Below, piece by piece: positions 126 through 60,758 of a DNA stretch of 64,000 nucleotides (positions are counted from its first letter, which is position 1; the number at the start of each line of letters is the position of its first letter). Origin of the DNA: Mobula hypostoma (Eukaryota); contig NC_086107.1 of NCBI RefSeq assembly GCF_963921235.1, forward strand, positions 98,582,001-98,646,000, written 5' to 3'. The notes beneath the pieces are model-generated. The model ran no database searches, was not told the DNA's origin, and saw nothing but the letters and a program-made list of their open reading frames with translations. The position numbers and the translations under genes are program-made.

Positions 126-1013
126 TCCATTCCATTCGTCCCCCCCATCCCTCCCCACTGATCTCCCTCCTGGCACTTACCCGTGTAAGCGGAACAAGTG
201 CTACACATGCCCTTACACTTCCTCCCTTACCACCATTCAGGGCCCCAGACAGTCCTTCCAGGTGAGGCGACACTTCACCTGTGAGTCGGCTGGGGTGATA
301 TACTGCGTCCGGTGCTCCTGATGTGGCCTTCTATATATTGGCGAGACCCGACGCAGACTGGGAGACTGCTTTGCTGAACACCTACGCTCTGTCCACCAGA
401 GAAAGCAGGATCTCCCAGTGGCCACACATTTTAATTCCACATCCCATTCCCATTCTGACATGTCCTCTACTGTAAAGATGAAGCCACACTCAGGTTGGAG
501 GAACAACACTTTATATTCCGTCTGGGTAGCCTCCAACCTGATGGCATGAACATTGACTTCTCTAACTTCCGCTAATGCCCCACCTCCCCCTCGTACCCCA
601 TCCGTTATTTATTTTTATGCACACATTCTTTCTCTCACTCTCCTTTTTCTCTCTCTGTCCCTCTGAATATACCCCTTGCCCATCCTCTGGTTCCCCCCCC
701 CCACCTCCTTGTCTTTCTTCCCGGACCTCCTGTCCCATGATCCTCTCGTATCCCCTTTTGCCAATCACCTGTCCAGCTCTTGGCTCCATCCCTCCCCCTC
801 CTGTCTTCTCCTATCATTTTGGATCTCCTCCTCCCCCTCCCACTTTCAAATCTCTTACTAACTCTTCCTTCAGTTAGTCCTGACGAAGGGTCTCGGCCTG
901 AAACGTCGACTGTACCTCTTCCTAGAAATGCTGCCTGGCCTGCTGCGTTCACCAGCAACTTTGATGTGTGTTGCTTGAATTTCCAGCATCTGCAGAGTTC
1001 CTGTTGTTTGTGT
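126..1013 (+). mobile_element. 5'-truncated Penelope-like element (Neptune-type): GIY-YIG endonuclease end plus 3' UTR/pLTR
   Basis: Encodes the Cys linker CKRNKCYTC and RHFTCESAGVIYCVRCS..LYIGETRRRL, with stop at 573-575. Flanked by direct repeat AACAGTTG (118-125, 1014-1021). Confidence 0.9.
875..912 (+). ncRNA. Minimal type I hammerhead ribozyme motif in PLE pLTR
   Basis: TAGTC-CTGACGA-AGGGTCTCGGCCT-GAAA-CGTC-GACTG: CUGANGA at 880-886, GAAA at 900-903, GUC at 905-907, stem I TAGTC/GACTG. Confidence 0.8.
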
Positions 1014-1582
1014 AACAGTTGACACAGTGTGTTAGATTTTCAGAAAGTTTTCAATAAGATGTCACAAGGGGATGGTTAGCAAATTTAGATCACTTGTGGA
1101 GACCTGGATTGGCAATTGGTTGTGGACAGAAAACAGAGTAGGAATAAACAGATGCTGCTCAGGCCGTGGGATCGTCACTGGTGGGATACTACAGTGGTCA
1201 GCGCTGGGGCCCCAGTTACTCTCTTTCTTTCTTTTTAAATCTTTTTATTGAGTAAGTATACAAAAAAGGTAAGCCATATAAACATTAATACAATGTTAAA
1301 GTATAATAAAATTCCAAAAGATAACAATACCAAAAAGAAAATACTACAAACAATGTAATTTAAGCATAAGAAACCAAGATAACATAATAGTATACTAAAT
1401 TTTATATATATCAATGGAAAAAAAAAGAAAAAAAAACCCCAAAAAAAAAACCCACCGTGCAACTAACTAAAAGCAAAGCAAAGCAATGGGCTAACTTGAA
1501 ACCAAACAGAGTTAAACTTAAAATCACGTCCTCAATCCCGACCTCCATTAAAACAGTGAAGAAAAAACAAGAAGGGTAAATA

Positions 1583-4500
1583 TTACATTAAATGAAAATA
1601 TCGAATAAAAGGTCCCCAAATCTGTTCAAATTTAAATGAAGAATCATAAAGGTTACTTCTAATTTTCTCCAGATTCAAACATAAAATCGTCTGAGAAAAC
1701 CAAAAAAAGGTAGTTGGAGCATTAAGCTCTTTCCAATGTTGTAAAATACATCTTTTCGCCATTAAAGTAAGAAATGCAATCATTCTACGGGCTGAAGGGG
1801 AAAGATTACTAGAAATTTTAGGTAGTCCAAAGATAGCAGTAATAGGGTGAGGAGAGATATCTATATTTAATACCTTAGAAATAATATTGAAAATATCTCT
1901 CCAAAAAGTTTCCAAAGTAGGGCAAGACCAAAACATATGAGTTAAAGAGGCTATCTGCCCCGAACATCTATCACAGAAAGGATTAATATGCGAGTAAAAA
2001 CGCGCTAACTTATCTTTGGACATATGTGCTCTATGAACCACTTTAAATTGAATTAGGGAATGTTTAGCACAAATAGAGGAAGTATTAACTAATTGTAAAA
2101 TCTGCCCCCAATCATCCACAGAAATGGTAAGCTCCAATTCCTGTTCCCAATCTACCCTAATCTTATCAAATGGAGCTTTCCTAAGTTTCATAATAATATT
2201 ATAAATCATAGCCGATGCACCTTTCTGACATGGATTAAGGTTAATTATCGAATCTAAAATATATATAGGAGGAAGCATTGGAAAGGAAGTAAGTATAGTA
2301 CTTAGGAAATTTCTAACTTGTAAATATCTAAAAAAATGTATTCTTGATAAGTTATATTTATTAGATAATTGTTCAAAAGACATAAGGGAACCATCTAAAA
2401 ATAAATCCAAAAACCGTAAAATACCCTTAGTCTTCCAAGTTTGAAAAGCGCGATCCGTAAAAGAGGGAGGAAAAAATATGTTACCTAAAATAGGAATCGC
2501 TAACCCGAATTGATTAAGATCAAAAAATTTTCTGAATTGAAACCAAATGCGCAAAGCATATTTAACTATCGGGTTAGAGACCTGCTTAAGACGTTTCGAA
2601 TCAAAAGGAAGAGAGGAACCTAAAATAGAACCAAGTGTATAACCCTGAACAGATTGTAATTCCAATGCTACCCATTTAGGAATAAATAGTATATCCCGGT
2701 CAAGTAACCAAAATTTCATATGTCGAATATTAATAGCCCAATAATAAAATCTAAAGTTAGGTAATGCTAAACCTCCATCTCTCTTAGCTTTCTGTAAATG
2801 TATTTTACCCAGTCTCGGATTCTTGTTCTGCCAAATAAATGAAGAAATTTTAGAGTCAACTTTATCAAAAAAAGATTTAGGAATGAAAATTGGTAATGCC
2901 TGAAACACATATAAAAATTTTGGCAAAAAAAACATCTTAACTGCATTAATACGACCAATCAAAGTTAAATATAAGGGAAACCATTTAGATGAAAGTTGAG
3001 TAATATGGTCTATTAATGGTAAAAAGTTAGTCTTAAATAAATCTTTATGTTTACAAGTAATTTTAATCCCAAGATATGAAAAGTAATTATTAATCAATTT
3101 AAATGGAAATTTATAATATAAGGGAAGATGTTTATTAATCGGAAAAAGTTCACTCTTACTAAGATTTAATTTATAACCTGAGAAAAGACCAAATTGTGCT
3201 AATAACTCTAAAACAGCAGGAATGGATCTCTCAGGATTAGAAATATATAAAAGTAAATCATCAGCATAGAGTGATAATTTATGGGACTTTAATCCCCGAG
3301 TTATCCCAGTAATATTTAAAGATTCTCGAATAGCAATTGCAAGAGGTTCTAATGCAATATCAAATAATAGGGGACTAAGAGGACAGCCTTGTCGAGTACC
3401 ACGAAAGAGAGGAAAAAAAGGTGAGTTTAAGGAGTTAGTACGAACCGAGGCTACAGGGGAGTAATATAACAGTTTAATCCAGGATATAAATTTCAAGCTA
3501 AAATTAAACATTTCAAGCACCTTAAATAAATAAGGCCATTCTACTCTATCAAAAGCTTTCTCGGCATCTAAAGAAATAACACACTCAGGAACATTTTGTG
3601 AGGGAGTATAAACGATATTTAACAATGTACGAATATTATAAAAAGAGTAACGACCTTTAATAAAACCCGTTTGGTCTTCCGAAATAATAGAAGGAAGTAC
3701 TTTTTCTAGTCTATTTGCTAATAACTTAGAAAAAACTTTAGAATCAACATTTAATAAAGATATTGGTCTATAAGATGCACATTGAGCAGGGTCTTTATCC
3801 TTCTTTAGTATTAAAGAAATTGATGCTCTATTAAAAGATTCCGGAAGTTTACCAAGTTTCAAAGAAGCCTCAAAAACCTTATAGAGCCAAGGAATCAATA
3901 AAGAAGCAAAACATTTATAAAATTCAACGGTAAACCCATCAGGGCCAGGAGCTTTCCCCAGATTCATAGAAAAAATAACATTCTTAATCTCATCCATTGT
4001 AATGGAAGTATCTAATAAAGAAGACATATCCTGTGAAATCAGAGGGAAGTCTAACTTATCTAAAAAATCATTCATATATTTAGAATCTCGAGGAGACTCT
4101 GATTGGTATAAAGAAGAATAAAAATCACAAAAGGTTTGATTAATCCCCACATGATCCAATATCAATCGATCATTTTGGTTATAAATCTGATTGATTTGAG
4201 ATTTAACATAATTAGATTTCAATTGATTAGCCAGCAGCTTGCCAATTTTATCACTGTGAACATAAAAATCACTTCTTGTTTTCTTTAATTGGTTTACAAT
4301 CGAGGACGAGAGTAGTAAACTGTGTTCCATTTGAAGTTCAGTTCTTTGTTTGTATAGCTCCTCAGAAGGAGCCATAACATATTTCTTATCAATTTCTTTA
4401 ATCTTGTCCACAATTACCATCTCCTCCTGCTTCTGTTTCTTCCTCAAAGCAACGGAATACGAAATAATCTGACCCCGAATATAGGCTTTAAAAGTGTCCC

Positions 4501-5359
4501 AAAGAGTGTTAACCGAAATATCTTCTGTATGGTTAATTGTAAAAAAAAGCTCAATCTGTTCATTCATAAAATTAACAAAGTCCGAGTCCTGAAGCAACAG
4601 CGAATTAAAACGCCATTGTCTATTGTTTGGTATATTGGCCATAATTTTAATAGAAAGCTTAAGTGGAGCATGATCCGAAATGGTTATAGAATCATAATCA
4701 CATTTAATCACTGAAGGAATGAGACGAGAATCAATGAAAAAATAATCAATTCTTGAATAGGAATGATGAACATGTGAAAAGAAGGAAAAATCTTTTTCCT
4801 GAGGATGCAGAAAACGCCAAATGTCCGTCGACCCAGAATCAGAAAGGAAAAAATTAATCAAATTTGCAGATTTATTAGGTAAAGTCCGTAAAGGAGCCGA
4901 ACGGTCCAAAGCTGGAGATAAACGGGTATTAAGATCTCCGCCCCAAATCAATGAAAACTCGTTCAAATTCGGAAACTGATCAAACAATGATTTATAAAAT
5001 TCCGGACAATCCATATTAGGAGCATAAACATTAACCAAAACTACTTTTTTATTAAATAATAAACCACTAACCAATAAAAATCTACCATTCGGATCAGAGA
5101 TAATATCCTGTTGTATAAAAGTAACTGAGGAGTCTATAAAAATAGAGACGCCTCGAATCTTAGCATTGGAGTTCGAATGAAATTGTTGTCCCTTCCAAAA
5201 TTTGAAAAAACGTAGTCTGTCCCCCCTCCGTACATGGGTCTCTTGTAAAAATAAAATTTGTGCTTTAAGTCTCCGGAACACTTTAAAAACTTTTTTCCTT
5301 TTAATAGGATGATTAAGACCATTAGTATTCCAGGAGACAAAATAAATAATAGACTCCAT
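1583..5359 (-). CDS. L1 ORF2p (APE endonuclease, reverse transcriptase, C-terminal CCHC motif), about 1258 aa from ATG 5359
   Basis: Uninterrupted ORF with SWNTNGL, FLQETH, NVYAPN, GGDLN, SRIDY, SDHAP (EN); KAPGPDG, YRPISLLN, LDAEKAFD, GTRQGCPLSP, LYADD, YLGI (RT); CDRC..HMFWSC. Confidence 0.95.
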   Translation of the reverse strand: MESIIYFVSWNTNGLNHPIKRKKVFKVFRRLKAQILFLQETHVRRGDRLRFFKFWKGQQFHSNSNAKIRGVSIFIDSSVTFIQQDIISDPNGRFLLVSGLLFNKKVVLVNVYAPNMDCPEFYKSLFDQFPNLNEFSLIWGGDLNTRLSPALDRSAPLRTLPNKSANLINFFLSDSGSTDIWRFLHPQEKDFSFFSHVHHSYSRIDYFFIDSRLIPSVIKCDYDSITISDHAPLKLSIKIMANIPNNRQWRFNSLLLQDSDFVNFMNEQIELFFTINHTEDISVNTLWDTFKAYIRGQIISYSVALRKKQKQEEMVIVDKIKEIDKKYVMAPSEELYKQRTELQMEHSLLLSSSIVNQLKKTRSDFYVHSDKIGKLLANQLKSNYVKSQINQIYNQNDRLILDHVGINQTFCDFYSSLYQSESPRDSKYMNDFLDKLDFPLISQDMSSLLDTSITMDEIKNVIFSMNLGKAPGPDGFTVEFYKCFASLLIPWLYKVFEASLKLGKLPESFNRASISLILKKDKDPAQCASYRPISLLNVDSKVFSKLLANRLEKVLPSIISEDQTGFIKGRYSFYNIRTLLNIVYTPSQNVPECVISLDAEKAFDRVEWPYLFKVLEMFNFSLKFISWIKLLYYSPVASVRTNSLNSPFFPLFRGTRQGCPLSPLLFDIALEPLAIAIRESLNITGITRGLKSHKLSLYADDLLLYISNPERSIPAVLELLAQFGLFSGYKLNLSKSELFPINKHLPLYYKFPFKLINNYFSYLGIKITCKHKDLFKTNFLPLIDHITQLSSKWFPLYLTLIGRINAVKMFFLPKFLYVFQALPIFIPKSFFDKVDSKISSFIWQNKNPRLGKIHLQKAKRDGGLALPNFRFYYWAINIRHMKFWLLDRDILFIPKWVALELQSVQGYTLGSILGSSLPFDSKRLKQVSNPIVKYALRIWFQFRKFFDLNQFGLAIPILGNIFFPPSFTDRAFQTWKTKGILRFLDLFLDGSLMSFEQLSNKYNLSRIHFFRYLQVRNFLSTILTSFPMLPPIYILDSIINLNPCQKGASAMIYNIIMKLRKAPFDKIRVDWEQELELTISVDDWGQILQLVNTSSICAKHSLIQFKVVHRAHMSKDKLARFYSHINPFCDRCSGQIASLTHMFWSCPTLETFWRDIFNIISKVLNIDISPHPITAIFGLPKISSNLSPSARRMIAFLTLMAKRCILQHWKELNAPTTFFWFSQTILCLNLEKIRSNLYDSSFKFEQIWGPFIRYFHLM

Positions 5360-6080
5360 AAATCCTAAAGTCAACCCATAACAAGGAGGATTGACAATAG
5401 GCGCGACCCACAGACCCGGAGAGGAAACAGAACATACAAAAGATACCGGGGAAAAGGACGTAACCAATACTTCAATAATGTATATAGCCCAAAGAGAAAC
5501 AAACTAAAACGTGAAGCCCCTCCCACCACCCCCCACCCCAGGACCCCAAGGCGAAATCTAAAGCAGACCCGCCAGAAAGAAGCAAGCGCTAAAACTACCC
5601 CCATGACTTCCGGTATACGCTCCCTAAAAAAAAGGTATAAATATGAAAAGGATCAGCTAATTGTAAAACAGTAAAAAAAATAAGTAAAAAAAAGTTAGCT
5701 CAATTAAAATACACACAGAACAGAACAAAAGCCGGAAAGTATATATTAAAAAAAAACCACAATAAACCTCAAACTCATGAATAGACACAGCAACAAAAAA
5801 AATAGGATTATTAACATAAAATGATTATAAAAAGCAAAACAGAATAAAATTTAAAAAAAACTACAAAATTTAAGGCCGCACAGGAAATACGTAAGATGAC
5901 AAAAGGGAAGTAACCACCCAGAATCCCCTGGGAAAAGAAAGAAATGACGCAGTTAAAAAGAAAGTTTAGCAGCCATATTAAGAAATCAAAAGTAAACTTT
6001 TCTGCCCAAATAGGGCACAGAAAAGTTAAAACCAACCAATTCACAGCCTCCGATCAACGGAGATAATTAAAAAAAGGCAA

Positions 6081-6959
6081 TTAAGATGTTGAAGATGAAA
6101 GTTGATCCAGATAACTCTGGGCATCCGATGGAGAATCAAAAAAACGAAGGGCTCCATCTGACATGCGAATCCTTAGACGTGCAGGGTACAGCAGCGCTGG
6201 TCTTAAATCCATCTTATAGAATTCCGACATCACGGATCTGTAACGAACCCGTTGGTCCCAAATTGGTTTACTGAAATCTTCCACGAATCGGAACTTAAGA
6301 TCCGAAAAATCAATGAAACCTTTAGATCGAGCGAATCGAAACAGTCTCTCCTTGTCTTGAAAGTAATGAAAACGTAAGATAACATGCCTAGGTCTATCTG
6401 ACCTAGACGAGTATGATGGGATTCTGTGAACACGATCCAGTAGCGGTGGTTGGTCAAGAAATACAGTAGGGAATTCATCTTTTAAACGTTGGGAGAAATA
6501 TTTCATAGGGTTAGCTTCCACGGCTTCCCTGACGCCAATCATTCGTAAATTCTGCCGTCGCATTCTAGATTCCAAGTCAGAGTTTTTAAAAGTCAAAAAG
6601 TCAAGTTTCTTCTTCATTACATTAATTGTTTCTTCGACTTTCCCCATCTTAAGCTCACTTTGTTGCGCGGATTTTTGAAGACCAGATATAGCCGACTGAT
6701 GTTCCGCAATACATGTTTGCATCTTATCAATTAAGTCGGCAATTTTCTGGAACTTAGTTGAGATTTCCATATGAATCAGGTCTTTAACAGAGCCCATAAT
6801 TTCTGTACGAATCATCTCCCTAACAGAGGTTGAAATTTCCCTCTGAATTAACTCCGATATAGCTTCCAAAGTCACCGGTGATTCAGTCGGAGGGAGATCC
6901 GTAGCTTTCGGTTTAACCGGAGGTTTACCATCCTTGCCGTCTTTCCCGTTCTTAGACAT
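6081..6959 (-). CDS. L1 ORF1p (coiled coil, RRM, CTD)
   Basis: Open ORF with a heptad region, then DLESRMRRQNLRMIGV, LDRVHRI, PRHVILRF, FVEDFS and LLYPARLRI, typical of fish L1 ORF1. Alternative upstream ATG at 6977. Confidence 0.9.
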   Translation of the reverse strand: MSKNGKDGKDGKPPVKPKATDLPPTESPVTLEAISELIQREISTSVREMIRTEIMGSVKDLIHMEISTKFQKIADLIDKMQTCIAEHQSAISGLQKSAQQSELKMGKVEETINVMKKKLDFLTFKNSDLESRMRRQNLRMIGVREAVEANPMKYFSQRLKDEFPTVFLDQPPLLDRVHRIPSYSSRSDRPRHVILRFHYFQDKERLFRFARSKGFIDFSDLKFRFVEDFSKPIWDQRVRYRSVMSEFYKMDLRPALLYPARLRIRMSDGALRFFDSPSDAQSYLDQLSSSTS

Positions 6960-7147
6960 AGCCGATCTCAGTATCATCCAATTGTCAGAGAATTCAGTTT
7001 AATTCAAAGTATTGTAAAAATTGATGCCTTAATAGTTAATTAAAGTATAGCTGACCATAGAGAGAAAAAACTCAGAGGTAATGGAGCGAGTCAAGAACGC
7101 GACTTCACTCCATGAGCGCTACCGGAAGTCTCTGTTACTCTCATATA

Positions 7148-7214
7148 CAGTACTGTGCAAACGTCTCAGGCACCTCACCTATATATATGTGCCTAAGACG
7201 TTTGCACAGTGCTG
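7148..7214. mobile_element. 67-bp palindromic Tc1/mariner-type MITE
   Basis: CAGTACTGTGCAAACGTCTCAGGCAC...GTGCCTAAGACGTTTGCACAGTGCTG inverted arms with TA on both sides (7146-7147, 7215-7216). Confidence 0.85.
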
Positions 7215-8479
7215 TACATCAACCATTTAGCTAAAGGGACCAAATCTCACATTTCCAAGCTACAAAACTAGGTGGGACAGGGAGAGGGGATGTATCAAGC
7301 TGAATGAGTGGTCAAGCACAAGTGGTGAAAAGTTATTAACTTTGAAACAAAACTGGACAGTTAAGTATGTTTTGATAAGATAATATTAAAAGGACCTGTG
7401 TGTCCTTGTACACAGTGTTGAGAGCCAACATGCAGGTGTAGAAGATGATCAAGAAGGGAAATGGCCATTATCACGAGGGCTTGAGGACAAGGATAGGGAT
7501 ATCTTATTGCAATTATATCTGGCCTCGATGAGACATTGTATTCTGTACAAATTTGGTCTGCTTACCTTTAATGAGGATATGCTTGCTGCACAGGCAGTGC
7601 AGCAAGTACTCAGTAGACTGAATCCTGAGATGGTGGGTTTCCTCTGTGAAGAGAGGTTCTCTAGCGTTTAGAAGAAAGCAAAGTGATCTCATTGAAGCAA
7701 TGGAGCTTGAGAAGCAGGATGCAGGGAGGATGTTTCCCATGGCTGAGAACTGAAGAACCAGGGGTTATGGGCTCAGAATAACGGTAGACCAATTAGCAGT
7801 CAGGTGAGATGTTTCTTCAGTCTAAGACTGGAGAATTTTTGGCATTCATTCCTCTGGAGGGCTTTGAAGGCTCAGTCACCAAGTTCATTCAGAGCAGGGA
7901 TTGATCGATTTCAGGATATTAAGGGAATAGAGGCATTAATTGATCAAGATATCACTGCTATTCCCAACATTAGTCACCTTCTGACATTCTCAGTGTATTT
8001 TTCATTTCTCACTTGACACAGAAATAGGAAGATTTCTCTCACCACCACTGGTCAAACTGACATTCACATTGACTTTGAGATTGGGCTGCATGGTGGCACA
8101 GCAAGTTGCTGCTGCTACCTCACAGTAACAGGCCCCAGCTTTGATCCAGACCTCAGGCGCTGACTGTGGAATTGGCATGTTCTGCATTTGGGGTTACTTA
8201 CAGTGGCTATTCAATCTATCAGCACACCTTTGAGATATGGCTGGGAATGGAGCATCCAGAGAAAGCCCACGTGATCACAGAACATGCAAATTCCACTCAC
8301 ACCATGAAAAGTCAATTTTGAACACAGGTTCTACAGCTCTGTCCACTATTCCACTCCACTGCCCTACTTGTGAGATTACCTGACTTCCTCTGTATTCCAA
8401 TTTGCAAATTTCCTCATGACTCCCCTCTTTCCTCCTTGGTCCTTACCCTAAACCAATGCTTTCTTGTTTAGACACTTGT

Positions 8480-11300: not shown

Positions 11301-11310
11301 TTCCTTAAGC

Positions 11311-11475
11311 AACACACACAAAATGCTAGAGGAACTCAGCAGGTCAGGCCGATCTATGGAAAAGAGTAAACAGTCGACATTTCGGGCTGGGAGCCTTCTT
11401 CGGGATTCTGAGTTCCTCCAGCATTTTGTGTGTGTTGCTTTGGATTTCCAGCATCTGCAGATTTTCTTGTGTTTG
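11311..11475. mobile_element. 165-bp fold-back PLE-derived insertion (inverted pLTR part with degenerate hammerhead plus direct 3' tail)
   Basis: GCAACACACACAAAATGCTAGAGGAACTCAG pairs with CTGAGTTCCTCCAGCATTTTGTGTGTGTTGC. Flanked by AGATATTCCTTAAGC at 11296-11310 and 11476-11490. Confidence 0.85.
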
Positions 11476-13189
11476 AGATATTCCTTAAGCTGCCTGACCA
11501 CCTTATCTACTTGCCCTATCTTCAGTTGATATGCAGTCCAAAATCCTCTAAATTTGTCCATATTCCACCACTTACTGCTGTCCTTCACCCCATTTTCCCT
11601 CCCCAAAGGTTTCATGCTTCTCTGGATTGTAAACAGAAGATCATACTTTAGAAACTTAATAGAAAATTTTGTGTAGGTAAAAAGGAAGGTTGATGACAGG
11701 AGAGCTTTTGACATTGTCAAGCACCTTGCTAAAATCCGTGTAGACGAAGTCCTTCATAGCAGATCAATCAGGAAGGTTAAAACTCGGGCTTGCAGAGTAA
11801 GTGGCAGATTGCATTGTAAATTGGCCCAGTGGGGGAAAGCAAGGGTTATGGGGAATTTTAGTGTTTGCAAGGTTCTGTTCTAAATCCCTAGCGTTGCACA
11901 GTATCCGTGCAAGTGATTTGGATTTTAATGTTTAAAGTCAACAGGCAATCCACTGGAGGAACTCGGTGGGTTGAGCAGCATCTCTGGGAGAAAAGGAATT
12001 ATCGATGTCCAGGTTGAAGCCCTGCATTAGGACTGAGTGTGGAGAGTGTAGATGGCCAGTATAAACAGTGATAAGACAGGATTCTGAGGTGATCGGTGGA
12101 CTGAGGAGGGGTGAGAGATGACAAGGCAGGTAGTGTCGGGAAGAAGAAGGGGATGGAGTTGGGAGGGAGGGAGGGAGGGCGAAGTTTGTAGACAGCTGCT
12201 GAAGGGAGATAAACGTGGTTTACCAGTGCTAGAACCTGATAAATGGATGGATCATCTGCAGGCAGGAGGGATTCATTTTAATTTGGCATCATGCTCAGCA
12301 TTAACATCATGGGCCGAAGGGCCTGTTCCTGTTCTGTACTCTTCTACAATGTGTACCGTGAAGGGGGGAGGTGAATGGCCAATGGAACCAGATGGGGGAG
12401 TAGGTGGGTGAACTGTGCGTATAGTGGATGGATGGAACCATTTGCGACTGACAGGAGGGAAGGTGTTGTTGCTCAGAGGGCGATGAACCTCCGAATCGCT
12501 CTGCCCCAGAAAGTGAATCAATATCCAGGCATCTGGATATTGTGGGAATCAGGGAATGTGAGGTTGGAACAAGAAAATGGTGCTGATCTCCCTGTTCCCA
12601 GGTATCTTACATCTGAATGCTCTGTCCTCTATCACTTTGTCCTTGGGTACTGTGCGTCTGTGAGCATTCCAACTATCTCCATGTGATTCTTGACTCCTGG
12701 TAATTCCACAATCTCCCCACAGCTCCACCAAGCCAACCCCGAGGTCTGGTGGTTAGGGCAGTCTCGCAGTATCTCCATTCTGAAACCCTATCTCTGGACC
12801 CTGTGACTGGTAATCCAATTCCTGGCTTTTCTGTCTGTACCAGAGTCAGCCATGTCAGCAAATGGCTACCTGCCCTCAGAAATAGCCTGTGCCAAAGTCT
12901 GGATGGTAATTTTAAACATGAAGTAGTGAGAGTTCAGGGCCAATGTGTTCCCATAAAGAAGAGCAAGGACAGCAAGTCCAAGGAACTTGGATATCAATGG
13001 TTGGATAAAGGAAGGAAATGAGGCATATGGCAGGTACAGAGAGCTGGAAATGTGAGGTCTTTCACAGAAACAATGCTCGTGATGATTCATGGATCATTTG
13101 GCCTTCTTGTCCAGGAGATGCAATTTCTGGAACATCTAGAATACAATGACACCTATCTCAGATTTGTAATTATTGACTGCACTCACAAC

Positions 13190-14915
13190 ACGCTGGAGGA
13201 ACCCAGCAGGTCGGGCAGCATCAGTGGAAAAGATCGGTCAACGTTTCGGGCCGGAACCCTTTGTCAGGACTGAAGAGGGAGGGGGCAGAGGCCCTATAAA
13301 GAAGGTGGGGGGGAGGGTGGGAAGGAGAAGGCTGGGAGGTTCCAGGTGAAAAACCAGTAAGGGGAAAGATAAAGGGGTGGGGGAGGGGAAGCAGGGAGGT
13401 GATGGGCAGGAAAGGTGAAGAAGGAATAGGGGAAAGCACAGTGGGTAGTAGAAGGAGGCAGAACCATGAGGGAGGTAGTAGGCAGCTGGGGGAGGGGGCA
13501 GAGTGAAATAGGGATAGGGGAAGGGAGGGGGAGGGAATTACCGGAAGTTGGAGAATTCTATGTTCATACCAAGGGGCTGGAGACTACCTAGACAGTATAT
13601 GAGGTGTTGCTCCTCCAACCTGAGTTTAGCCTCATCATGGCAGTAGAGGAGGCCATGTATGGACATATCTGAATGGGAGTGGGAAGCAGAGTTGAAGTGG
13701 GTGGCTACTGGGAGATCCTGTCTGTTTTGGCAGATGGAGTGGAGGTGCTCGACGAAGCGGTCCCCCAATCTGCGTCGGGTTTCACCGATGTAGAGGAGGA
13801 CGCACCAGGAGCACCGGATGCAATAGATGACCCCAACAGACTCACAAGTGAAGTGTTGCCTCACCTGGAAGTACTGTTTGGGGCCCTGAATGGTGGCAAG
13901 AGAGGAGGTGTAGGGACAGGTGTAGCACTTGCGCTTACAGGGATAAGTGCCAGGTGGGAGATCCGTAGGGAGGCACCAATCCCTGCGGAAGGCGGAGAGG
14001 GGCGGAGAGGGAAAGATGTGCTTAGTGGTGGGGTCCTGTTGAAGGTGGCGGAAGTTGCGAGGATAATGTGCTGGATCCGGAGGCTGGTGGGGTGGTAGGT
14101 GAGGACAAGGGGAACTCTGTCCCTGTTGTGGTGGCGGGAGGATGGGGTGAGAGCCGAAGTGCGGGAAATGGAGGAGATGCGGGTGAGGGCATCATTGATG
14201 ATGGTAGAAGGGAAACCACCATCCTTAAAGAAAGAGGACAGTTGAGATGTCCTGGAATGGAAAGCCTCAACCTCGGAGCAGATGCGGCGGAGACGGAGGA
14301 ACTGGGAATAGGGAATGGCATTTTTGCATGTGACGGGGTGGGAAGAGGTATAGTTGAGGTAGTTATGAGAGTCAGTGGGATTGTAGAAGATGTCAGTGGA
14401 CAGTCTGTCTCCAGAGATGGAGATCGAGAAAGGGGAGAGAAGTGTCTGAGATAGACCAAGTGAATTTGAGGGCTGGGTGGAACTTAGAAGCAAAGTCGAT
14501 GAAATTGACAAGCTCAGCGTGGGTGCAGGAAGCAGCACCAATGTAGTCGTCAATGTACCGAAGGAAAAGTTGGGGAGCAGTACCAGAATAGGTTTGGAGC
14601 ACAGACTGTTCCACATAACCAACGAAGAGGCAGGCATAGCTGGGGCCCATGCGAGTTCCCATAGCTACACCCTTGGTCTGAAGAAAGTGGGAAGAGCCAA
14701 AACAGAAGTTATTGAGTGTGAGAACCAGTTCCGCCAACCGGAGGAGGGTAGTGGTGGTGGGGAACTGGTGAGGTCTATTATCCAGGAAGTGCGGAGGGCT
14801 TTGAGGCCTTCTTCATGGGGAATGGAGGTGTATAGGGATTGGACATCCATAGTGAAAATGAAGCGGTTGGGAGCGGGGAACTGGAAGTTATTGAAGAGGT
14901 GGAGGGCATGGGATG
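13190..14915 (-). mobile_element. 5'-truncated Neptune-type PLE (RT C-terminal half, GIY-YIG, 3' UTR); frameshifted
   Basis: FTMDVQSLYTSIPH, GVAMGTRMGPSYACLFVG, FLRYIDD, FTCESVGVIYCIRC..YIGETRRRLGDRF. Hammerhead-like motif at 13235-13272 with core CTGACAA (mutated). Confidence 0.9.
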
Positions 14916-16837: not shown

Positions 16838-17615
16838 GGCAAATGCTGGAGATCCAAAGCAACACCCTCACAAAACGTTGGAGAAACTTAGCAGGTCAGG
16901 CAGCACCTATGGAAAATGGTCAACAGTTGAGGTTTTGGGTTGAGACTCTTCTTCATGACTGGAAAGGAGGAGGAGGTCAGAGTAAGAAGATGGGGGGGGA
17001 GGAGAGGACGAAGTACAAGCTGGTAGGTGAGGGGGTGAAACCAAGAGAGGGGGAAGGGTGAACTAAAGAGCTGGGAAGTAGATTGGTGAAAGAGATAAAA
17101 GGCTGGAGGAGGGAGAATCTGATAGGAGAGGATAGAAGGCCATGGAAGAAAGGGAAGGCAGAGGGCACCAGAAGGAGATGATGGGCAGGCAAGGGGATAA
17201 GGTGTGAGAGGAAACAGGAATGGGGAATGGTGAAGGAGAGGAGGAAGCATTTACTGGGAATTCGAGAAATCGATGTTCATGCCATCAGGTTGGAGGCTAC
17301 CCAGACGGAATATAAGGTGTTGCTCCTCCAACCTGAGAGTGGCCTCGTCACGACAGTGGAGGAAGCCGTGGATAAACATAGCTGAATATGAATGGGAAGT
17401 AGGATTAAAATGGGTGGACACTGGGAGATCCCACTTTTTCTCACAGAGTGTAGGTGCTCAATGGAGCGGTCTCCCAGTCTACGCTGGATCTCGCCAATGT
17501 ACAGGAGGCCACACTGAGAGCACCGGATAGAACTAACCCCATCAGACTTGCAGGTTACCTGGAAGGACTGAATAGCAATGAGGGAGGAGGTGTAGGGGTG
17601 GGTGTAGCACTTGTG
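16838..17615 (-). mobile_element. Older PLE 3' fragment (GIY-YIG plus 3' UTR with decayed hammerhead)
   Basis: IRCSQCGLLYIGEIQRRLGDR; 3' UTR homologous to the other PLE copies. Confidence 0.8.
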
Positions 17616-24539: not shown

Positions 24540-25440
24540 CGAAGCAGTGTTTCGTTGGCAGTTTAAAAATACCGTTTGCTGCATTGCATCTGATGTTCGC
24601 GATGCGCTCTCTGTACGGGAGAAACTACATACACAACGGCGACCGCTTCTCAGTTGCCTGTCGCTTTAATTTTGCACCCCACTCCTTCTCTGACCTCTGT
24701 GTTCACTCTGCAACACGGCTGGGTCGATCACTCAGCCCACAAGGAAGTGGCGGTTCTCGGGACGAGCATATTGCTTATTAAGTGGACGCACTCCAGTTGC
24801 CTTGTCTTCCCTGTTTGGTACTAGGAGATACTGCCTGCAAGGTTATTGTCGCCTGCTCGCTCCACAGCCGCCATCAGAGCCGCTGAACAGCGCCGGCATC
24901 GCCTGCCCGTCTCCCGGCGCCCGGCGCGGTTGCCAGAGGGGAGGACTGTGCAGCCGGAGGGAGAGCTGTCTGGGGTCCTGCCGCTGGCCAGGGGCGGCGG
25001 GGCGGCGGTGCGGCAGGGGAGCGGGCCCTTTAAGGGGCGGAGGTCTCTCTCTCGCTCGCGCCCTCCCTCCGCACCCGGCTGGGCGGGGAGCTGCGGCCCG
25101 ATTCAGCGAGAGGCGGCGCCGGTAGAGGCTGCGGACCGGCACCGGGGACTGGAGCGGGCACGGAGCCGGGCCGGAGTGGGCCGGCGGCAGCGGGCGATGG
25201 GTGAGTGATCGAGCGAAGGCGTTGCCGCGGATTCCCGAGCCGGCGTCCTCCTCCACCCCGGCCCCTGCATCAGCACGTCCCGGGCCTAGGACCATCCACC
25301 TCGGTAGGGGCGACCAGGCCGGCCCACCCTTCCTCCCCGAACCGCCCCTCTTCCCTCTTCCCTCTTCCCACTTCCCACTTCCCCGCACCGAGATGGTCAT
25401 CCCGCCCGAGTACCAGCCATGAGGTCAAAGGTCCGACAAC
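24540..25440 (+). promoter_or_regulatory. CpG island / probable host-gene promoter
   Basis: Very high GC and CpG content against a CpG-poor background; GC boxes (GGGGCGG), TTTAAG near 25028, ETS-like AGGAAGT near 24742. Confidence 0.75.
25197..25200 (+). CDS. Probable first coding exon end of an unidentified host gene (ATG plus 1 nt, phase-1 intron)
   Basis: GGGCG-ATG-G|GTGAGT: strong Kozak context (G at -3 and +4) directly followed by a consensus splice donor inside the CpG island. No downstream exon identified. Confidence 0.55.
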
Positions 25441-28500: not shown

Positions 28501-29595
28501 AATACAGGATTAAGAGGGAACTGATGCATTTTGGAAGTAACTCCAGTCAGCTGAGCCACAGATATCAGGGGTATTGTAAGCTGTACTTTCATTCTGTTTG
28601 GTTCTGTTTGTGAAACAAGTAATTCATGTGCAACTTTTTACAAAGTCAGTAATTAGACCTTTGCTGGAGTTGTGTCCATGTCGGGCCACTGCACTTCAGA
28701 AAGGTTGCCAAGCCATTGGGCTGGATGCCTAGGTGGCTTACTGCAGTGAAAACAGGTATATGGGTAGTTGGGGAACAGCTTGGGGGCCCCCTGAAAAAAC
28801 ACTGGGCATCATCCTGCTCCGAGCACCCAGGGGCCCCAGGACAATCAATGGGACATTGTTCTGCTCCGAGTATCCATCTGCTCATAGAATAGGTGGACGA
28901 GAGCAGTTATCCTGCAATAATGCCGCTAGTCCTTGTCAGAGTGGAGATAGCCAGGGGGAAATTTAAGAGTGGTTTTCAAAGTCCTGGAGTATTTTGAAAG
29001 ACTAAGCAAGAAACTGCTTCCAGTACCTAGAAGAAATGGTGACGAGAGGACAGAGATTTAAAGTCATTGACAAAAAGACAAGAAGGTAACGGGAATATTT
29101 TTAAACAGACCAGGTTATAATGTTCTTGGAATTTGTAAATGTGTGAATTCATCTATATGTGTATATAATAGGAAGTTGTTGGAAAGAGAAATTTGCAAGG
29201 TAGACATGAGATTCTGCAGACGCAGGAAATCTTGGGCAGAACGCACAAATTCCAGAGAATCTTTGCAGGTCAGGCTGCATCAAAGGAGGGGCATAAACAA
29301 TGGATGTTTCGGGCTGAAACCCATCGTTGGGACTGCTCCATTCTTTTCAGGGCTTCATCAGATCTGTCCCCTTCCTTTCCAGTCCTGAGAATTAGTTTCT
29401 CATTTTCATATGTACCAGCTGCAAGTGAAAAAATTTGTTTGACGTGCAAGGGCTGCCGAGGTTGAATGCTCTCCTTTGGGTGACAGTCAGTCATATGTGA
29501 GAAGGCAAGTTTTAATACTTTCCATAGGTTTGTTGAACAACCTGGGGCCTGTTTTAAATACAAGAGCCAGAACACAGGAAAGAAATAACCTAGTG

Positions 29596-36349: not shown

Positions 36350-36711
36350 ACCATTCCCCATTCCCTGTTTCTCCTCTCTTACCTTATGTCCCTACCTGCT
36401 CACCACATCCCTCTGGTGTTCCTCCCCCTTCTCTTTCTTCCATGGTCTTGTGTCCGTTCCTATCAGATTCCCCATTCTCCAGCACTTTATCTCTTTTGCC
36501 AATTGACTTCCCAGGTCTTTACTTCACCCCTCTCTTGCACATGTTCTACTTCTTTCTCCTCTTCCCCCGCCCCCCCCCCCGCACCTTACTCTTCCTTCTC
36601 TTCCTTTCCAGCCCTAATGAAGGGCCTCGGCCGGAAATGTCGACTGTTTACACTTCCTTAGATGTTGCCTGGCCTGCTGAGTTCCTCCAGCATTGTGTGT
36701 GTCTGTGTGTG
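36350..36711 (+). mobile_element. PLE 3' UTR fragment with degenerate hammerhead (CTAATGA..GAAATGTC)
   Basis: Homologous to the 3' end of 126-1013. TGCCTCCTTC duplicated at 36337-36346 and 36712-36721. Confidence 0.75.
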
Positions 36712-38966: not shown

Positions 38967-39205
38967 TTTATTGCTTTCACCAATCGACTTTCCAGCTCTT
39001 AACTTCACCCCTCCCCCTCCCAGATTCACCTATCACCTACTGCCTTGTACCTCCTCCTCTTCCCCCCCTCCATCTTCTTACTCTGACTTCTCAATTTTTT
39101 TTAACCTGTTCTGATGAAGGGTCTCGTCTTGAAATGTCGACTGTTAACTCTTTTCCATAGATGCTGCCTGGCCTGCTGAGTTCTTCCAGCATAATGTGTG
39201 TATTA
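38967..39205 (+). mobile_element. PLE 3' fragment with hammerhead core (CTGATGA 39111-39117, GAAA 39131-39134, GTC)
   Basis: Homology to the other pLTR copies; flanked by a diverged direct repeat of about 90 bp. Confidence 0.75.
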
Positions 39206-40529
39206 CCTCTGTATTGTCTGTTCAATATTAGTCACAGACGAGCTGTTGGAGCTTATACCAACATCGTGGAATTGTAACTGATTTTGGCTGTCTTCAAAGT
39301 ACAGTACAATTACCTCCACTGGTCTCTCTGACTGCAGCTTCCAAACTCATCCAAGCAGGACAAAGGGCATCATTACGTGCTGGCTCCAGGTCAAATAAGC
39401 ATTGCATGTGACTTGGGAAAACCTTGTCTCTATAAAAATAGTGGAATCTTCTACCCAGCAGCACTGTGGGAGTACCAGAAGCGAAAGGACTTTTGTGGTT
39501 CTAACAGGTTGCTCACCACCACAATCACGAGGGCATGAGCATACCTGGGTTCTCCTCTTCTGATAATAAATACACCAAAAGAAAATTCAGCCTTGATGCT
39601 ATGGGCAGTGAAAGAAAGTGGTGAGATTGAAAACTTTGAGCAAAGCATACACCAGCATTGTAAAAAGACATGAGAACATAGAAGGAACTAGATCTAGCTT
39701 TTCTAAAAGTTCTGATTGTAAAAAAATGTTCTCATTCTGAAGTATTGTTCTGCAATTTGTGATGAAAATTAGGTTAGTGAAGCAACACACACACACACAC
39801 AATGCTGGAGGAAGTCAGCAGGCCAGGCAGTATCTATGGAAAAGAGTACAGTCGATGTTTGTGATGAGGTTAGTGACGCACTATCGGGGAGTGAATCAGA
39901 TAAATATGATTGGAAGTGGTAGAAATGTTGGTTAGATTGCATTTGACCCTGCCTTGCAGAACCTACCAGAACCACTGGAGCTGCCAGAGGGCCTTTTCCT
40001 TGTTTAAATGTCTCTGATCAGAGAGATTTAGTAATATCTGAAAAGATTTTAGATTTGTCAACATTTGTTTTAAAGAATAGCTTTAGTAATGGATTTTAAT
40101 ATGACAATTATTAATTAGACTAAGTATTTTGAGCCTGTTAACTGTGATGGCGTTCAACTATCCCATTCAAATGAGTAGGATCTCTCTCACAAGACATCTA
40201 ATTATGGCTGGCTTCGAGCTGATGGGCAGTTTTCAGTCCAGTTAAGAGGTGAAGGGAAGGCTAAAGGTTCAAGATGGTTTGTTGCCGTGTCTCAGTACAC
40301 GAGTGTAAAGGAGAACAAAATCATCGTTTCTCTGGATCGGATGCAGCATAAAAAACACAATAAATATAAAAGCAATCCTATAAACAGAATGTACAAGTAA
40401 TTGTTGGGTCAGACTTTGTAAGATTATCTTGTAAGCACATGTTTGCATATACTGTATGTAAGGCGCTGCTAGGTGCAGGAGTATCTGAACTTCAGATGAC
40501 TGACAGGCAGGAAATGACAAAGTAAGCAA

Positions 40530-41463
40530 CACACATCAAAGTTGCTGGTGAAAGCAGCAGGCCAGGCAGCATCTGTAGGAAGAGGTGCAGTCGACGTTTC
40601 AGGCCGAGACCCTTCATCGGGACTAACTGAAGGAAGAGTGAGTAAGGGATTTGAAAGTTGGAGGGGGAGGGGGAGATCCAAAATGATAGGAGAAGACAGG
40701 AGGGGGAGAGATGGAGCCAAGAGCTGGACAGCTGATAGGCAAAAGGGATACGAGAGGATCATGGGACAGGAGGTCCGGGAAGAAAGACAAGGGGGGGGGG
40801 ACCCAGAGGATGGGCAAGAGGTATATTCAGAGGGACAGAGAGAGAAAAAGGAGAGTGAGAGAAAGAATGTGTGCATAAAAATGAGTAACAGATGGGGTAC
40901 GAGGGGGAGGTGGGGCCTTAGCGGAAGTTAGAGAAGTCAATGTTCATGCCATCAGGTTGGAGGCTACCCAGACGGAATATGAGGTGTTGTTCCTCCAACC
41001 CGAGTGTGGCTTCATCTTTACAGTAGAGGAGGCCGTGGACAGACATGTCAGAATGGGAATGGGATGTGGAATCAAAATGTGTGGCCATTGGGAGATCCCG
41101 CCCCCTCTGGCGGACAGAGCACAGATGCCCAGCAAAGCGGTCTCCCAGTCTGCGTCGGGTCTCGCCAATATATAAAAGGCCACATCGGGAGCACCGGACG
41201 CAGTATATCACCCCAGTCGACTCACAGGTGAAGTGTTGCCTCACCTGGAAGGACTGTTTGGGGCCCTGAATGGTGGTAAGGGAGGAAGTGTAAGGGCATG
41301 TGTAGCACTTGTTCCGCTTACACGGATAAGTGCCAGGAGGGAGATCAGTGGGGAGGGATGGGGGGGACGAATGGACAAGGGAGTTGCGTAGGGAGCGATC
41401 CCTGCGGAATGCAGAGAGAGGGGGGCAGGGAAAGATGTGCTTAGTGGTGGGATCCCGTTGGAG
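40530..41463 (-). mobile_element. 5'-truncated Neptune-type PLE (GIY-YIG plus 3' UTR)
   Basis: ORF 40918-41244 FTCESTGVIYCVRCSRCGLLYIGETRRRL. TSD GACAAAGTAAGCAA at 40516-40529 and 41464-41477. Hammerhead core mutated to CCGATGA. Confidence 0.92.
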
Positions 41464-49759: not shown

Positions 49760-50780
49760 TCTCCTGTCAGTAGAAATGGTTCTGCCGGGCTTAGTAGCTA
49801 AGCCACCATGAAGGCCAGGAGCTGGACTTGGTTGTCAGAGACTATTGGAGGTGCACACCATTGGGAGCATTTAATCGGTAGTGGGAGCTCCTCCCCATTA
49901 CCACCTCCGACTATGACAATCTTGAGGAACCCATTAAAGAAGAAAATGCGTATCGCATATCAAACGATCAAATGACCGAAATCAAAAGGGATAGGCGGAA
50001 TGCTAAATACAATTGAAGTCAGAAGTTTACATACACCTTAGCCAAATACATTTAAACTCAGTTTTTCACAATTCCTGATATTTAATCCTAGAAAACATTC
50101 CCTGTCTTAGGTCAGTTAGGATCACTACTTTGTTTTAAGAATGTGAAATGTCAGAATAATAGTAGAGAGAATGATTTATTTCAGCTTTTATTTCTTTCAT
50201 CACTTTCCCAGTGGGTCAGAAGCTTACGTACACTTTGTTAGTATTTGGTAGCATTGCCTTTAAATTGTTTAACTTGGTTCAAATGTTTTGGGTAGCCTTC
50301 CACAAGCTTCTCACAGTAACTTGCTGGAATTTTGTTCCATTCCTCCAGATAGAACTGGTGTAACTGAGTCAGGTTTGTAGGCCTCCTTGCTCGCACACGC
50401 TTTTTCAGTTCTGCCCACAAATTTCTATCGGGTTGAGGTCAGAAAATGATGTCAAGTCTGGTTCATCCTTGGGAGCAATTTCCAAACACCTGAAGGTACC
50501 ACGTTCATCTGTACAAACAATAGTACGCAAGTATAAACACCATGGGACCACGCAGCTGTCATGCCGCTTAGGAAGGAGACACATTCTGTCTCCTAGAGAT
50601 GAACGTATATTGGCATGAAAAGTGCAAATCAATCCCAGAACAACAGCAAAGGACCTTGTGAAGATGCTGGAGGAAACAGGTAGACAAGTATCTATATGCA
50701 CAGTAAAACGAGTCCTATATCGACATAACCTGAAAGGCTGCTCAGCAAGGAAGAAGCCACTGCTCCAAAACCGCCATTAA

Positions 50781-54180
<3,400 letters not shown>

Positions 54181-54579
54181 TCAGTTACACCAGTTCTGTC
54201 TGGAGGAATGGAACAAAAGTCCAGCAACTTACTGTGAGAAGCTTGTGGAAGGCCTCCCAAAACATTTGACCCAAGTTAAACAATTTAAAGGCAATGCTAC
54301 CAAATACTAGCAAAATGTATGTAAACTTCTGACCCACTGGGAAAGTGATGAAAGAAATAAAAGCTGAAATAAATCATTCTCTCTACCATTATTCTGACAT
54401 TTCACATTCTTAAAAAAAAGTGGTGATCCTAACTGACCTAAAACAGGGAATGTTTTCTAGGATTAAGTGTCAGGAATTGTGAAAAACTGAGATTAAATGT
54501 ATATGGTTAAGGTGTATGTGTACAAAGTTTCATGGTGCCAACGTCTTTGGAAGGGCAAGTAGCCAAGACGGAAGTAGAG

Positions 54580-59439: not shown

Positions 59440-59625
59440 GGAGGCTCTGTTTACTAGGATCTTTCCGTGCCGGGCCTGCGGCGGATTGTGGAGACTCCCG
59501 AGTGAAGCGCGACGCGAACCAAGCCGCGACAGCTGCGGGCGGCTGGACGAAAACGGGGACTGGCGAGGTGGGCAAGGTTGGGCTGAGCTGCCTAAAAGGG
59601 AGGGAGGAGGAGGGCTGTAAGTACT
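59440..59625 (+). promoter_or_regulatory. Small CpG-rich patch, possible alternative promoter or first exon
   Basis: Dense CpGs in apparently non-repeat sequence; candidate donors GAG|GTGGGC (59568) and GCT|GTAAGT (59617). Confidence 0.35.
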
Positions 59626-60546
59626 GAACTGGATTGAGGATGATAGTGTCGATATTTAAAGGTCCAGTTTTCAGTAAGGTTAGCAAGCTCTGTAACTAGT
59701 TCAGAGGGAATTGATATAATACTCCAGCGGCCCGAAGCTCTGTAGTTTTCATCTTGTCAGTTTTAATTCTTGATAAATATTTATTTCTGGCCCCCATAAT
59801 TCTTAATTCTCATTCTACAGTAAATGTTGGGGTTTCTACTTGCATTTTACTGATGCCCTGGGGGGGAAAAATTTTTCCTCCACGCAAGATCTTGGCCAGC
59901 ATCTCTGCCCCCTGCTGCTTAGCCGGCACTCGGTGACATCCCTCCTGTCCCCGTTTTGTGGGAATCTCTCCCGTGCACACTGCGCTCTTGTTGTGGGGTT
60001 GACTTTCCCCCCCGGGGTGTCTGGTCACACTGAATGAATTGGAAGAGTAGCGAGCGATGTAACTCAAGGATGGTGAGAGAGATCTGGTGAAAGAAGGCAT
60101 TGTGCATTTCAAGGCTGTCAGTTCGACTGGGAAGCCAATAGTCATTGGAGGCTGTAGGGGAACAAAGGCCATCTTGTTTTGCGTGAAAATGAAAGCTTTC
60201 CAGTTCTCTGCTAGTTAGTTAGCCATTGTTTGCCGGTACACTGGGACCCCTTGATGACCCTTAAGATCAGAATGCTGGTTCACAGGCTAGCCTCTGGAAG
60301 GTGGACGGACTGAGCTGCATGGTGCCCAGTCCGTTTCTCGATCGGAGCTGTAATTCCGCCAGCGTCAAGGATGGCTTTTGCATCCGCTGCGGTTTTGTGT
60401 GTTCTGAGGGTAGGCGGCCGGAATGGGAGCTGTAAACCATTCCACAGTTCCGCAGGTGAGGTGGCGCACTCCGCCCTCACAGTGTTGAGCTGTAGAAAGG
60501 TACAGTTGTACAAAGGAAGGTTCGAGAAACAACATAGACATAACAG

Positions 60547-60758
60547 CGCAGACACGAGGAAATGTGCAGATGCTGGAAATTCAAGCAACACGCACACAAA
60601 ATGCTGGTGAACGCAGCAGGCCAGGCAGAGGTACAGTCGACGTTTGGGGCCGAGACTCCGTCCTGACGAAGGGTCCCGGCCCGAAACGTCGACTGTACTT
60701 CTTCCTATAGATGCTGCCTGGCCTGCTGCGTTCACCAGCATTTTTTTGTGTGTGTTGC
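60547..60758. mobile_element. About 210-bp fold-back PLE-derived insertion with an intact hammerhead core at its centre
   Basis: Two head-to-head pLTR arms; CTGACGA 60663-60669, GAAA 60683-60686, GTC 60688-60690. Imperfect flanking repeat CATAGACATAA (60533) and CATAGCCATAA (60758). Confidence 0.88.

Follow-up and report, generated by a model that had tools for sequence, protein, structure and literature searches.

Minimal type-I hammerhead motifs in the terminal repeats of likely Neptune-type Penelope-like retroelements in a cartilaginous fish

Cervera and de la Peña (2014, PMC4209133) found minimal hammerheads of the kind considered here in Xena, Poseidon and Neptune elements, with hosts that include fishes, the coelacanth (about 4,000) and Xenopus (about 9,000); in the portions of its Table S1 and Fig. 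S3 consulted, none of the species is a cartilaginous fish. In the parts of the same study drawn on here, dimers and trimers cut weakly and monomers do not cut. For an Anolis element, the sections we cite of Frangieh et al. (2024, PMC11167929) report that cleavage needs the element's own protein, that ribozyme mutants still insert and that RNA-seq ends are absent at the site. The role of the hammerhead for Penelope-like elements is described as still open (PMC8557442), and a genome with many young copies is good material for questions about it.

A sequence-only reading of the DNA studied here had proposed a dispersed hammerhead family and a hammerhead search to check it. Such a search succeeded by descriptor: a relaxed type-I minimal-hammerhead descriptor matched four sites (880+, 39111+, 51396− and 60663+) in the 64-kb window, the whole stretch of DNA analysed, compared with a mean of 0.017 matches (maximum 1) in 60 dinucleotide shuffles, and its strict form without loop 3 had no match in 60 shuffles. 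It failed with Rfam models, which found no hammerhead family over the whole window (E ≤ 5) or in two copies searched singly (E ≤ 10). An nhmmer profile recovered 14 copies or fragments in the window at E ≤ 0.002, of which nine were its seeds and five were not, while the reversed window gave E ≥ 0.7. With descriptor and profile matches far above their controls, we rejected a chance origin of the motif. Separately, we rejected microRNA-like Rfam matches at 60620-60710, which reflect a fold-back insertion. The features of the window are as follows.

128..1013, plus strand: young 5'-truncated Penelope-like copy with linker end, GIY-YIG, pyrimidine-rich terminal repeat and hammerhead; stop at about 573-575; 3' end with an extra 36-nt tail; target duplication 118-127 / 1014-1023
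875..912, plus strand: minimal hammerhead, intact core; 5-bp stem I, 4-bp stem II (G10.1-U11.1 wobble), ACGU palindrome
after C907, plus strand: predicted cut of 875-912, at the C17 position
11307..11475, both strands: second fold-back insertion; decayed hammerhead 11371-11408 (U4>C) in the minus arm, plus arm 11408-11475 without hammerhead; 15-bp target duplication
11946..12056, minus strand: strongly decayed copy, four core changes
13235..13272, minus strand: hammerhead of a more distant subfamily, G8>A; ends a copy that reaches to at least 14916 and is 76% identical to the long copy
16924..16961, minus strand: decayed copy, C3>A and G12>A; ends the fragment 16830-17614
24700..25206, plus strand: CpG island and candidate first exon ending ATG-G/GTGAGT, with the site at 25197-25206
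29242..29335, minus strand: decayed copy, two core changes
36609..36646, plus strand: older copy, core broken by G5>A
39106..39143, plus strand: older copy that keeps all core letters; each helix has a U-U mismatch, hammerhead fold +1.5 kcal/mol
39785..39866, minus strand: short insertion with the element match beginning some 7 nt 5' of the cut site; flanked by the target duplication 39771-39784 / 39867-39880
40588..40625, minus strand: young copy, core broken by U4>C; part of a truncated element at about 40524-41464 with target duplication
51302..54180, minus strand: longest Penelope-like copy, 5'-truncated and spread over several reading frames, within the right inverted repeat of a Tc1-like element; 12-bp target duplication 51290-51301 / 54181-54192
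51364..51401, minus strand: minimal hammerhead, intact core, same sequence as 875-912
60544..60757, both strands: head-to-head fold-back insertion with minus arm 60549-60656, which bears the 3' half of a second hammerhead, and plus arm 60658-60757; 11-bp target duplication 60533-60543 / 60758-60768; predicted to form a long hairpin that buries the 60660 hammerhead
60658..60695, plus strand: minimal hammerhead, intact core, G10.1-C11.1; the inversion junction leaves a 3-bp stem I
after C60690, plus strand: predicted cut of 60658-60695, at the C17 position

All ten places at which the motif had been reported hold it, and the two cytidines previously proposed as cut sites, C907 and C60690, do occupy position 17. 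The four copies called intact, at 875-912(+), 39106-39143(+), 51364-51401(−) and 60658-60695(+), all retain the CUGANGA / GAAA / UH core, although the 39111 copy lacks the stem II and GAAAC attributed to it (it reads GTCTT-GAAAT). Six further copies had been listed as degenerate and without a strand; the motif is present in each, on the minus strand in five and on the plus strand only at 36610. That list was short by four pieces: 11946-12056(−), 39790-39860(−), 60588-60667(−) and 11408-11475(+). The last two are inverted partners.

Across 11 scored copies, C3 U4 G5 A6 N7 G8 A9, G12 A13 A14, A15.1-U16.1 and H17 are unchanged in four. Helices I and II have 5 + 4 pairs in 875 and 51364 and 3 + 4 in 60660; helix cells were paired in 88.9% of cases in register and in 12.7-55.6% when slid. 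The extra base between 9 and 10.1 is an A in nine of nine aligned sequences. A palindromic ACGU at 15.1-16.1 replaces helix III, without loop 3, in 875, 51364 and 60660, which bears out the earlier description of a stem III reduced to almost nothing. By its sequence, the motif is a real minimal type-I hammerhead of Penelope-like elements, of the kind already described.

Every copy of the motif sits in a Penelope-like retroelement, inside its 3' terminal repeat. The motif follows the ORF stop by about 300 nt and precedes the element 3' ends by 65-100 nt. The element is ordered as reverse transcriptase (RT), CX4CxxC linker and C-terminal GIY-YIG endonuclease. On the long copy we found, in order, an RT with SKGLTF (53810-53793), DKGG (53465-53454, the DKG motif) and YIDD (52743-52732), the linker CKWNKCYTC (52085-52059) and a GIY-YIG region (51977-51933) with CCHH; Pfam RVT_1 and GIY-YIG gave weak matches, below cut-off. 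The closest protein relatives are from Chiloscyllium punctatum (74% and 69%), and viral contigs had no match by protein or by pattern. A CX2-5CxxC linker before the endonuclease is common to Neptune and Nematis and absent from Poseidon in the text consulted of PMC8557442, and among 120 listed relatives a similar cysteine pattern (2-6 spacing) occurs in 53 of the 55 with the endonuclease pattern. No Nematis is mentioned among elements of 35 species in the available portion of a recent preprint (bioRxiv 10.64898/2026.07.22.740005). The Penelope 3'-end origin proposed previously is upheld, the motif being in the terminal repeat of an element with a C-terminal endonuclease that is likely Neptune-type; an indirect link, by sequence, runs through a metagenome locus (L016) to a coral Neptune hammerhead.

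The copies are separate insertions, mostly 5'-truncated, and two are head-to-head fold-backs; target duplications of 10-16 bp flank all six insertions tested. Two 3' ends occur, at 973 and 1010 (36 nt apart), matching an optional 30-40-bp tail. Within the window we found no tandem copy, in which a full ORF would lie between two direct terminal repeats, and the long copy is short of about 200 N-terminal residues present in full-length relatives. The missing tandem layout is a property of the copies in the window, not of the family.

For comparison we used 22 endonuclease-anchored metagenome loci. Descriptor matches occurred in five, all six matches being on the sense strand; several of the 17 loci without a match are short or decayed. 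In L011 two identical motifs flank the ORFs, and L016 has the same 38-nt layout as the window motif, with two compensatory changes in stem I. These are the only two-sided pair changes, and none occurs among the window copies. Covariation in nine sequences was not above shuffles (its level was reached by 73/500 and 95/500), and RNAalifold on 11 window copies recovered stem II only, without a two-sided change.

The sequence-only reading had made conservation of the core over its flanks a test of the motif. In nine copies, which are related and were partly picked by the motif, majority agreement was 96/108 cells in the core compared with 180/234 at other hammerhead positions (Fisher p = 0.012) and 418/540 downstream (p = 0.006). 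The excess is there, but a downstream block (927-950, 190/216) matches the core in conservation. Such a block would also suit a motif that no longer cuts in this lineage and persists for a structural or protein-binding role beside the point where reverse transcription begins, or that simply rides along with the conserved 3' end. The young subfamily may point the same way, as its C7 is predicted to let GACG and CGUC form an inactive hairpin. The literature sections at hand add that insertion in vitro is unaffected by ribozyme mutants (PMC11167929) and that Naiad elements thrive without the motif (PMC8557442). However, catalytic letters and helix layout are common to the fish family and the coral-type element while loop and stem I differ, and the Anolis motif, in the excerpts cited, cuts with protein and shows C3G/G8C rescue (PMC11167929). 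We consider loss of cutting improbable.

Contigs were mapped onto a 970-nt reference. Matches came from one DNA run (233,086 contigs) and from two runs presumed to be RNA (20,339 and 13,737), figures that are not copy numbers. X9 and X17 are no more than presumed to be RNA and consist of contigs, which cannot show RNA ends; the raw-read run X21 covered two of 30 bins and was uninformative. Among the 20 rows listed (2,714 further), loose ends piled at both edges of stem I (876 and 913) and at 973 and 1009-1010, with no pile at 907/908. Depth in the presumed RNA runs rose at 923-988; we did not read this as cleavage, since 494-559 was raised too and depth should not be equated with expression. 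Position 899 was C in about a third of the depth, and one variant fell within 875-912 among the 40 rows listed of 116, which is no test of conservation.

The edge of stem I is also where a terminal-repeat intron could end, with the stem I 5' strand doubling as its 3' splice site so that splicing would switch the ribozyme. A pyrimidine run and CAG precede or form that strand in 875, 13235, 16923 and 36610, rough acceptor scores are 4.2 (875) and 9.5 (36610), and in Drosophila virilis Penelope the intron end maps to the helix I 5' end, according to the part of PMC4209133 cited. Yet the entire repeat is pyrimidine-rich, and the CAG is needed in any case to pair with the 3' strand. The 15 joints listed (640 further) include no GT..AG joint that stops at 873-878, the 562 to 876 joint has TA..TT ends and occurs in DNA as well, and no donor at the ORF end is common to the subfamilies. 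A splicing switch is therefore unlikely, if slightly less so than loss of cutting.

Even in the best copy, nearest-neighbour folding spoke against the active form, which came to −7.0 kcal/mol as a monomer (best fold −11.0) and to −11.5 kcal/mol as a dimer (best fold −30.3), and hammerhead stems had P ≤ 0.03 in 181 nt of context. The earlier proposal was that plus-strand copies beyond 25200 would lie in a host intron and could cut pre-mRNA when paired; we considered pairing in cis or in trans, perhaps aided by the element's protein. Two plus-strand copies beyond the candidate first exon do retain all core letters, the family is very abundant by matched contigs, and tandem retrozymes are under-represented in Xenopus introns in the portion cited of bioRxiv 10.64898/2026.07.22.740005. 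The putative host gene, however, is indicated by the CpG island and the ATG-G/GTGAGT site, and a rough splice-site scan with general site frequencies gave three, then 28, candidates, of which none was recognised by eye as a second exon and several fall in repeats. None of the three sense copies is both intact and free: 36610 has a broken core, 39111 broken helices, and 60660 with its inverted partner is predicted to fold back at −151 kcal/mol, with hammerhead stem probabilities of 0.0. About 580 nt downstream of 39111 lies an antisense copy with which it could form a duplex of −116 kcal/mol, and a 39111 + 60660 double hammerhead came to −0.4 kcal/mol against −20.7 for the best fold. Pairing with antisense copies in that putative intron is predicted at −116 to −183 kcal/mol, compared with −29 for the sense partner. 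The proposal of paired intronic copies thus finds little support in this window, and we regard it as very unlikely. The broader form, in which intact intronic sense copies are trans-activated by element RNA or protein and cut nascent host transcripts, is just as hard to credit; if true, a transposon ribozyme would be a genome-wide brake on long genes, with an orientation bias in introns.

Probably, then, the motif is the terminal-repeat (pseudo-LTR) hammerhead of a Neptune-type Penelope-like retrotransposon, internal to the element, dependent on a dimer or on protein, and spread as passive cargo. The cut site is spanned by 13 of the 14 copies, which therefore probably derive from uncut RNA. 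Selection would keep the motif in those rare tandem source elements that are active; there, either a pair of repeats or the protein of the element itself may fold it into the cutting form and so process part of the element RNA. For the copies that insert, the template would be uncut RNA with priming downstream of the ribozyme, and every 3' fragment would therefore carry the motif. Once inserted, copies would decay neutrally and remain largely inert in host transcripts.

Compared with the systems in PMC4209133, as far as the sections cited extend, the window motif has the same type-I layout and matches the published consensus (CUGANGAH, an extra base before helix II, G10.1-C11.1 and a palindromic 15.1-16.1). 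Shared as well are GAAA-C-G-U-C without loop 3, a short helix I, the place in the terminal repeat and mostly solitary dispersed copies with inverted pairs close together. It differs in its short helix II (4 bp) and in the G10.1-U11.1 of many young copies. Every part of the Acropora digitifera Neptune hammerhead (Table S1 and Fig. S3 there) equals the window motif in length, with other stem I pairs and another loop II. L016 was picked up through its endonuclease (best segment 46% identical), and across the whole stretch bounded by stem I its motif is the same as that coral hammerhead in every letter. The motif follows the ORF stop by about 75 nt in L016, compared with about 300 in the window.

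The Anolis Poseidon element PAc, in the passages cited of PMC11167929, likewise has two 3' ends a few tens of bases apart, downstream of the hammerhead, and copies derived from uncut RNA; unlike the window element, it belongs to the Poseidon clade and is without the cysteine linker. The ORF of PAc starts inside the hammerhead. Non-LTR retrozymes (Li et al. 2026, bioRxiv 10.64898/2026.07.22.740005), present in one cartilaginous fish, carry type-I hammerheads related to Penelope terminal repeats. They are described in the available text as tandem arrays with a hammerhead in each unit, whereas the window copies are dispersed, and we rejected a retrozyme identity since no motif-bearing tandem array was among the 10 tandem-repeat rows of the window. 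The locus is thus an ordinary extension of a known motif to a cartilaginous-fish family, likely of Neptune type, which may be catalogued in Repbase or Dfam.

We found the recurrent hammerhead motif of the sequence-only reading at all ten of the places where it had been reported. As RNA, it corresponds to a 38-nt type-I hammerhead. A 5-nt stem I strand, CUGANGA and one additional A lead into stem II (4 bp, closed by a 4-nt loop), after which come GAAA, C-G-U-C and the 3′ strand that completes stem I; A15.1-C-G-U16.1 forms a loopless palindrome. C907 and C60690 are, as proposed, the predicted cut sites of the copies at 875 and 60660. A hammerhead descriptor identified four sites in the window (880+, 39111+, 51396− and 60663+) against 0.017 on average across 60 shuffles, and a profile built from nine copies gave 14 matches at E ≤ 0.002, five of them non-seed (best E in the reversed window used as control, 0.7). 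The Rfam hammerhead models, a check suggested by the earlier reading, did not match the motif. Core changes were present in 7 of 11 scored copies; at 39111 the core letters are intact, but each of the two helices contains a U-U mismatch. This copy is flanked by a ~95-bp duplication (38872–38966/39212–39302, 80% alike), which far exceeds the other target duplications. At 29364–29391 (+), a short terminal-repeat piece (weak match, E 2.8), arranged head to head relative to the 29302 copy, ends within the hammerhead core.

An ORF ends ~300 nt upstream of the motif, and the intervening sequence is pyrimidine-rich. The coding region of the long copy (51302–54180, −) is spread over several frames and is ~200 N-terminal residues short of full-length relatives. 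A search with its reverse transcriptase (RT) piece returned 1,603 relatives. Among the 120 listed, the two top-ranking ones are from Chiloscyllium punctatum (74% and 69%), which makes a cartilaginous-fish host probable. An endonuclease at the C terminus, preceded by a CX2-5CxxC linker, indicates Neptune or Nematis (PMC8557442), and L016, one of 22 related metagenome loci found through their endonuclease, bears the hammerhead printed for a Neptune-labelled Acropora digitifera element (supplement of PMC4209133). Because of the linker and C-terminal endonuclease and the L016 match, the carrier is likely a Neptune-type Penelope-like element.

Among the nine window copies, which are interrelated and were partly picked by the motif itself, majority agreement was 96/108 cells in the core, 180/234 at other hammerhead positions (core excess, p = 0.012) and 418/540 at downstream positions (p = 0.006). 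The excess of core over flank conservation sought by the sequence-only reading is seen against these cells. A 24-nt block at 927–950 and equivalents, located downstream of the hammerhead and short of the 3′ ends, reaches the same level of conservation as the core (190/216 cells) and is a candidate site at which the element's protein may bind. Given the relatedness and selection of the copies and this equally conserved block, the comparison lends modest support to conservation of the ribozyme. Loose contig ends cluster where stem I begins and ends, at 876 (three contig sets) and 913 (DNA set), as would be expected of older subfamilies with a common hammerhead but different flanks. Descriptor matches occur in 5/22 related loci, always in sense orientation. 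In another locus (L011:268–5470), two ORFs (352 and 836 codons) are flanked by a pair of identical hammerheads that lie 5.2 kb from each other and have a long stem II, a tandem layout absent from the window. Stem I of L016 has two compensatory changes, and shuffles get as many in 95/500 trials.

Target duplications of 10–16 bp (one mismatch allowed) were present at 6/6 insertions tested. The long copy is inserted in a Tc1/mariner-like element (50029–54519) with long inverted repeats and a DDE_3 frame at 50781–51653; the copy occupies the right repeat, and the other repeat represents the empty site. Two insertions (11307–11475 and 60544–60757) are head-to-head fold-backs within a single target duplication, a pattern described for Penelope-like elements (PMC3846280, PMC8557442). 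The 3′ ends fall at ~973 or ~1010 (positions as in the first copy, 128–1013, +, 5′-truncated), both in the window and in aligned contigs. The cut site has sequence on both sides in 13/14 profile matches, and the remaining match begins ~40 nt past it. None of the 14 begins exactly at the cut site, the closest (39785–39866) beginning ~7 nt before it, and no loose end at 907/908 was among the 20 rows listed for contigs aligned to the element (2,714 further rows). Because copies run through the cut site and none begins there, they derive from RNA that was uncut at this site, or cut and then rejoined. As a side idea, stem I could overlap a splice acceptor, an arrangement described for D. virilis; the pyrimidine run and CAG fit an acceptor, but no junction into stem I was among 15 joints listed of 655.

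Other elements in the window were as follows:
1230–7130 (−), L1-like element, apparently full-length, ending in an A-rich tail and possibly flanked by a 9-bp target duplication
6081–6998 (−), L1-like ORF1, open
1583–5503 (−), L1-like ORF2, open over 1,306 codons between stops, encoding endonuclease, RT and zinc-binding domains
47281–49759, LTR element remnant, two ~610-bp direct repeats (92% alike) around an integrase-like fragment (48361–48831, −)
A 77-nt palindrome (7143–7219) lies just past the L1 5′ end. Fragments resembling another non-LTR retroelement occur in several frames at 61013–63219 (−), where a Pfam scan of two frames gave no match.

The sequence-only reading also envisaged that sense-strand intronic copies past 25200 pair and cut a host pre-mRNA. 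A CpG island (~24700–25400) with ATG-G|GTGAGT at 25197–25206 suggests a candidate plus-strand first exon; no later exon was identified in the window. Directly after this candidate exon is a ~2-kb C/T-rich tandem repeat of 20- and 14-nt units (25477–27520). Assuming that the gene covers the rest of the window, three copies are sense (36610, 39111 and 60660). Two observations favour cutting: presumed RNA runs contain the hammerhead-carrying family at very high abundance, and a preprint reports under-representation of tandem retrozymes in Xenopus introns (bioRxiv 10.64898/2026.07.22.740005). However, the 36610 core is broken (G5>A), and 39111, with its broken helices, has an antisense copy ~580 nt downstream (predicted duplex, −116 kcal/mol). 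The 60660 copy is intact, yet is predicted to be buried in a hairpin with its inverted partner (−151 kcal/mol, both hammerhead stems at probability 0.0), without which the predicted stem II probability is 0.83–0.92. Pairing 39111 with 60660, 21.5 kb away, yields a predicted double hammerhead of −0.4 kcal/mol, and the other intact copies fall outside this role (875 upstream of the CpG island, 51364 antisense). Cutting of a host transcript is thus very improbable, and long double-stranded RNA is the likelier product of such an intron.

In predicted folding, which leaves out core tertiary contacts, the best copy forms an extended hairpin at −11.0 versus −7.0 kcal/mol for the hammerhead, and its dimer a double hammerhead at −11.5 versus −30.3 kcal/mol for the best fold, in agreement with low activity of the predicted ribozyme. 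We consider it quite probable that the putative ribozyme, if active at all, would act with the help of protein on transcripts of tandem source elements, and that it enters the genome as cargo, since reverse transcription would begin just downstream of the motif.

The motif is a further case of a minimal hammerhead kind described in 2014. That description includes fish Neptune elements, and dispersed copies number in the thousands in coelacanth and Xenopus (PMC4209133); no cartilaginous fish is among the species compared from its supplement. Published monomers do not cut and dimers cut weakly (PMC4209133). The Anolis hammerhead requires the protein of its element for cleavage and is dispensable for insertion in vitro, with unprocessed RNA as the main template, and the two 3′ ends found here resemble the two reverse-transcription starts giving the tail of that element (PMC11167929).
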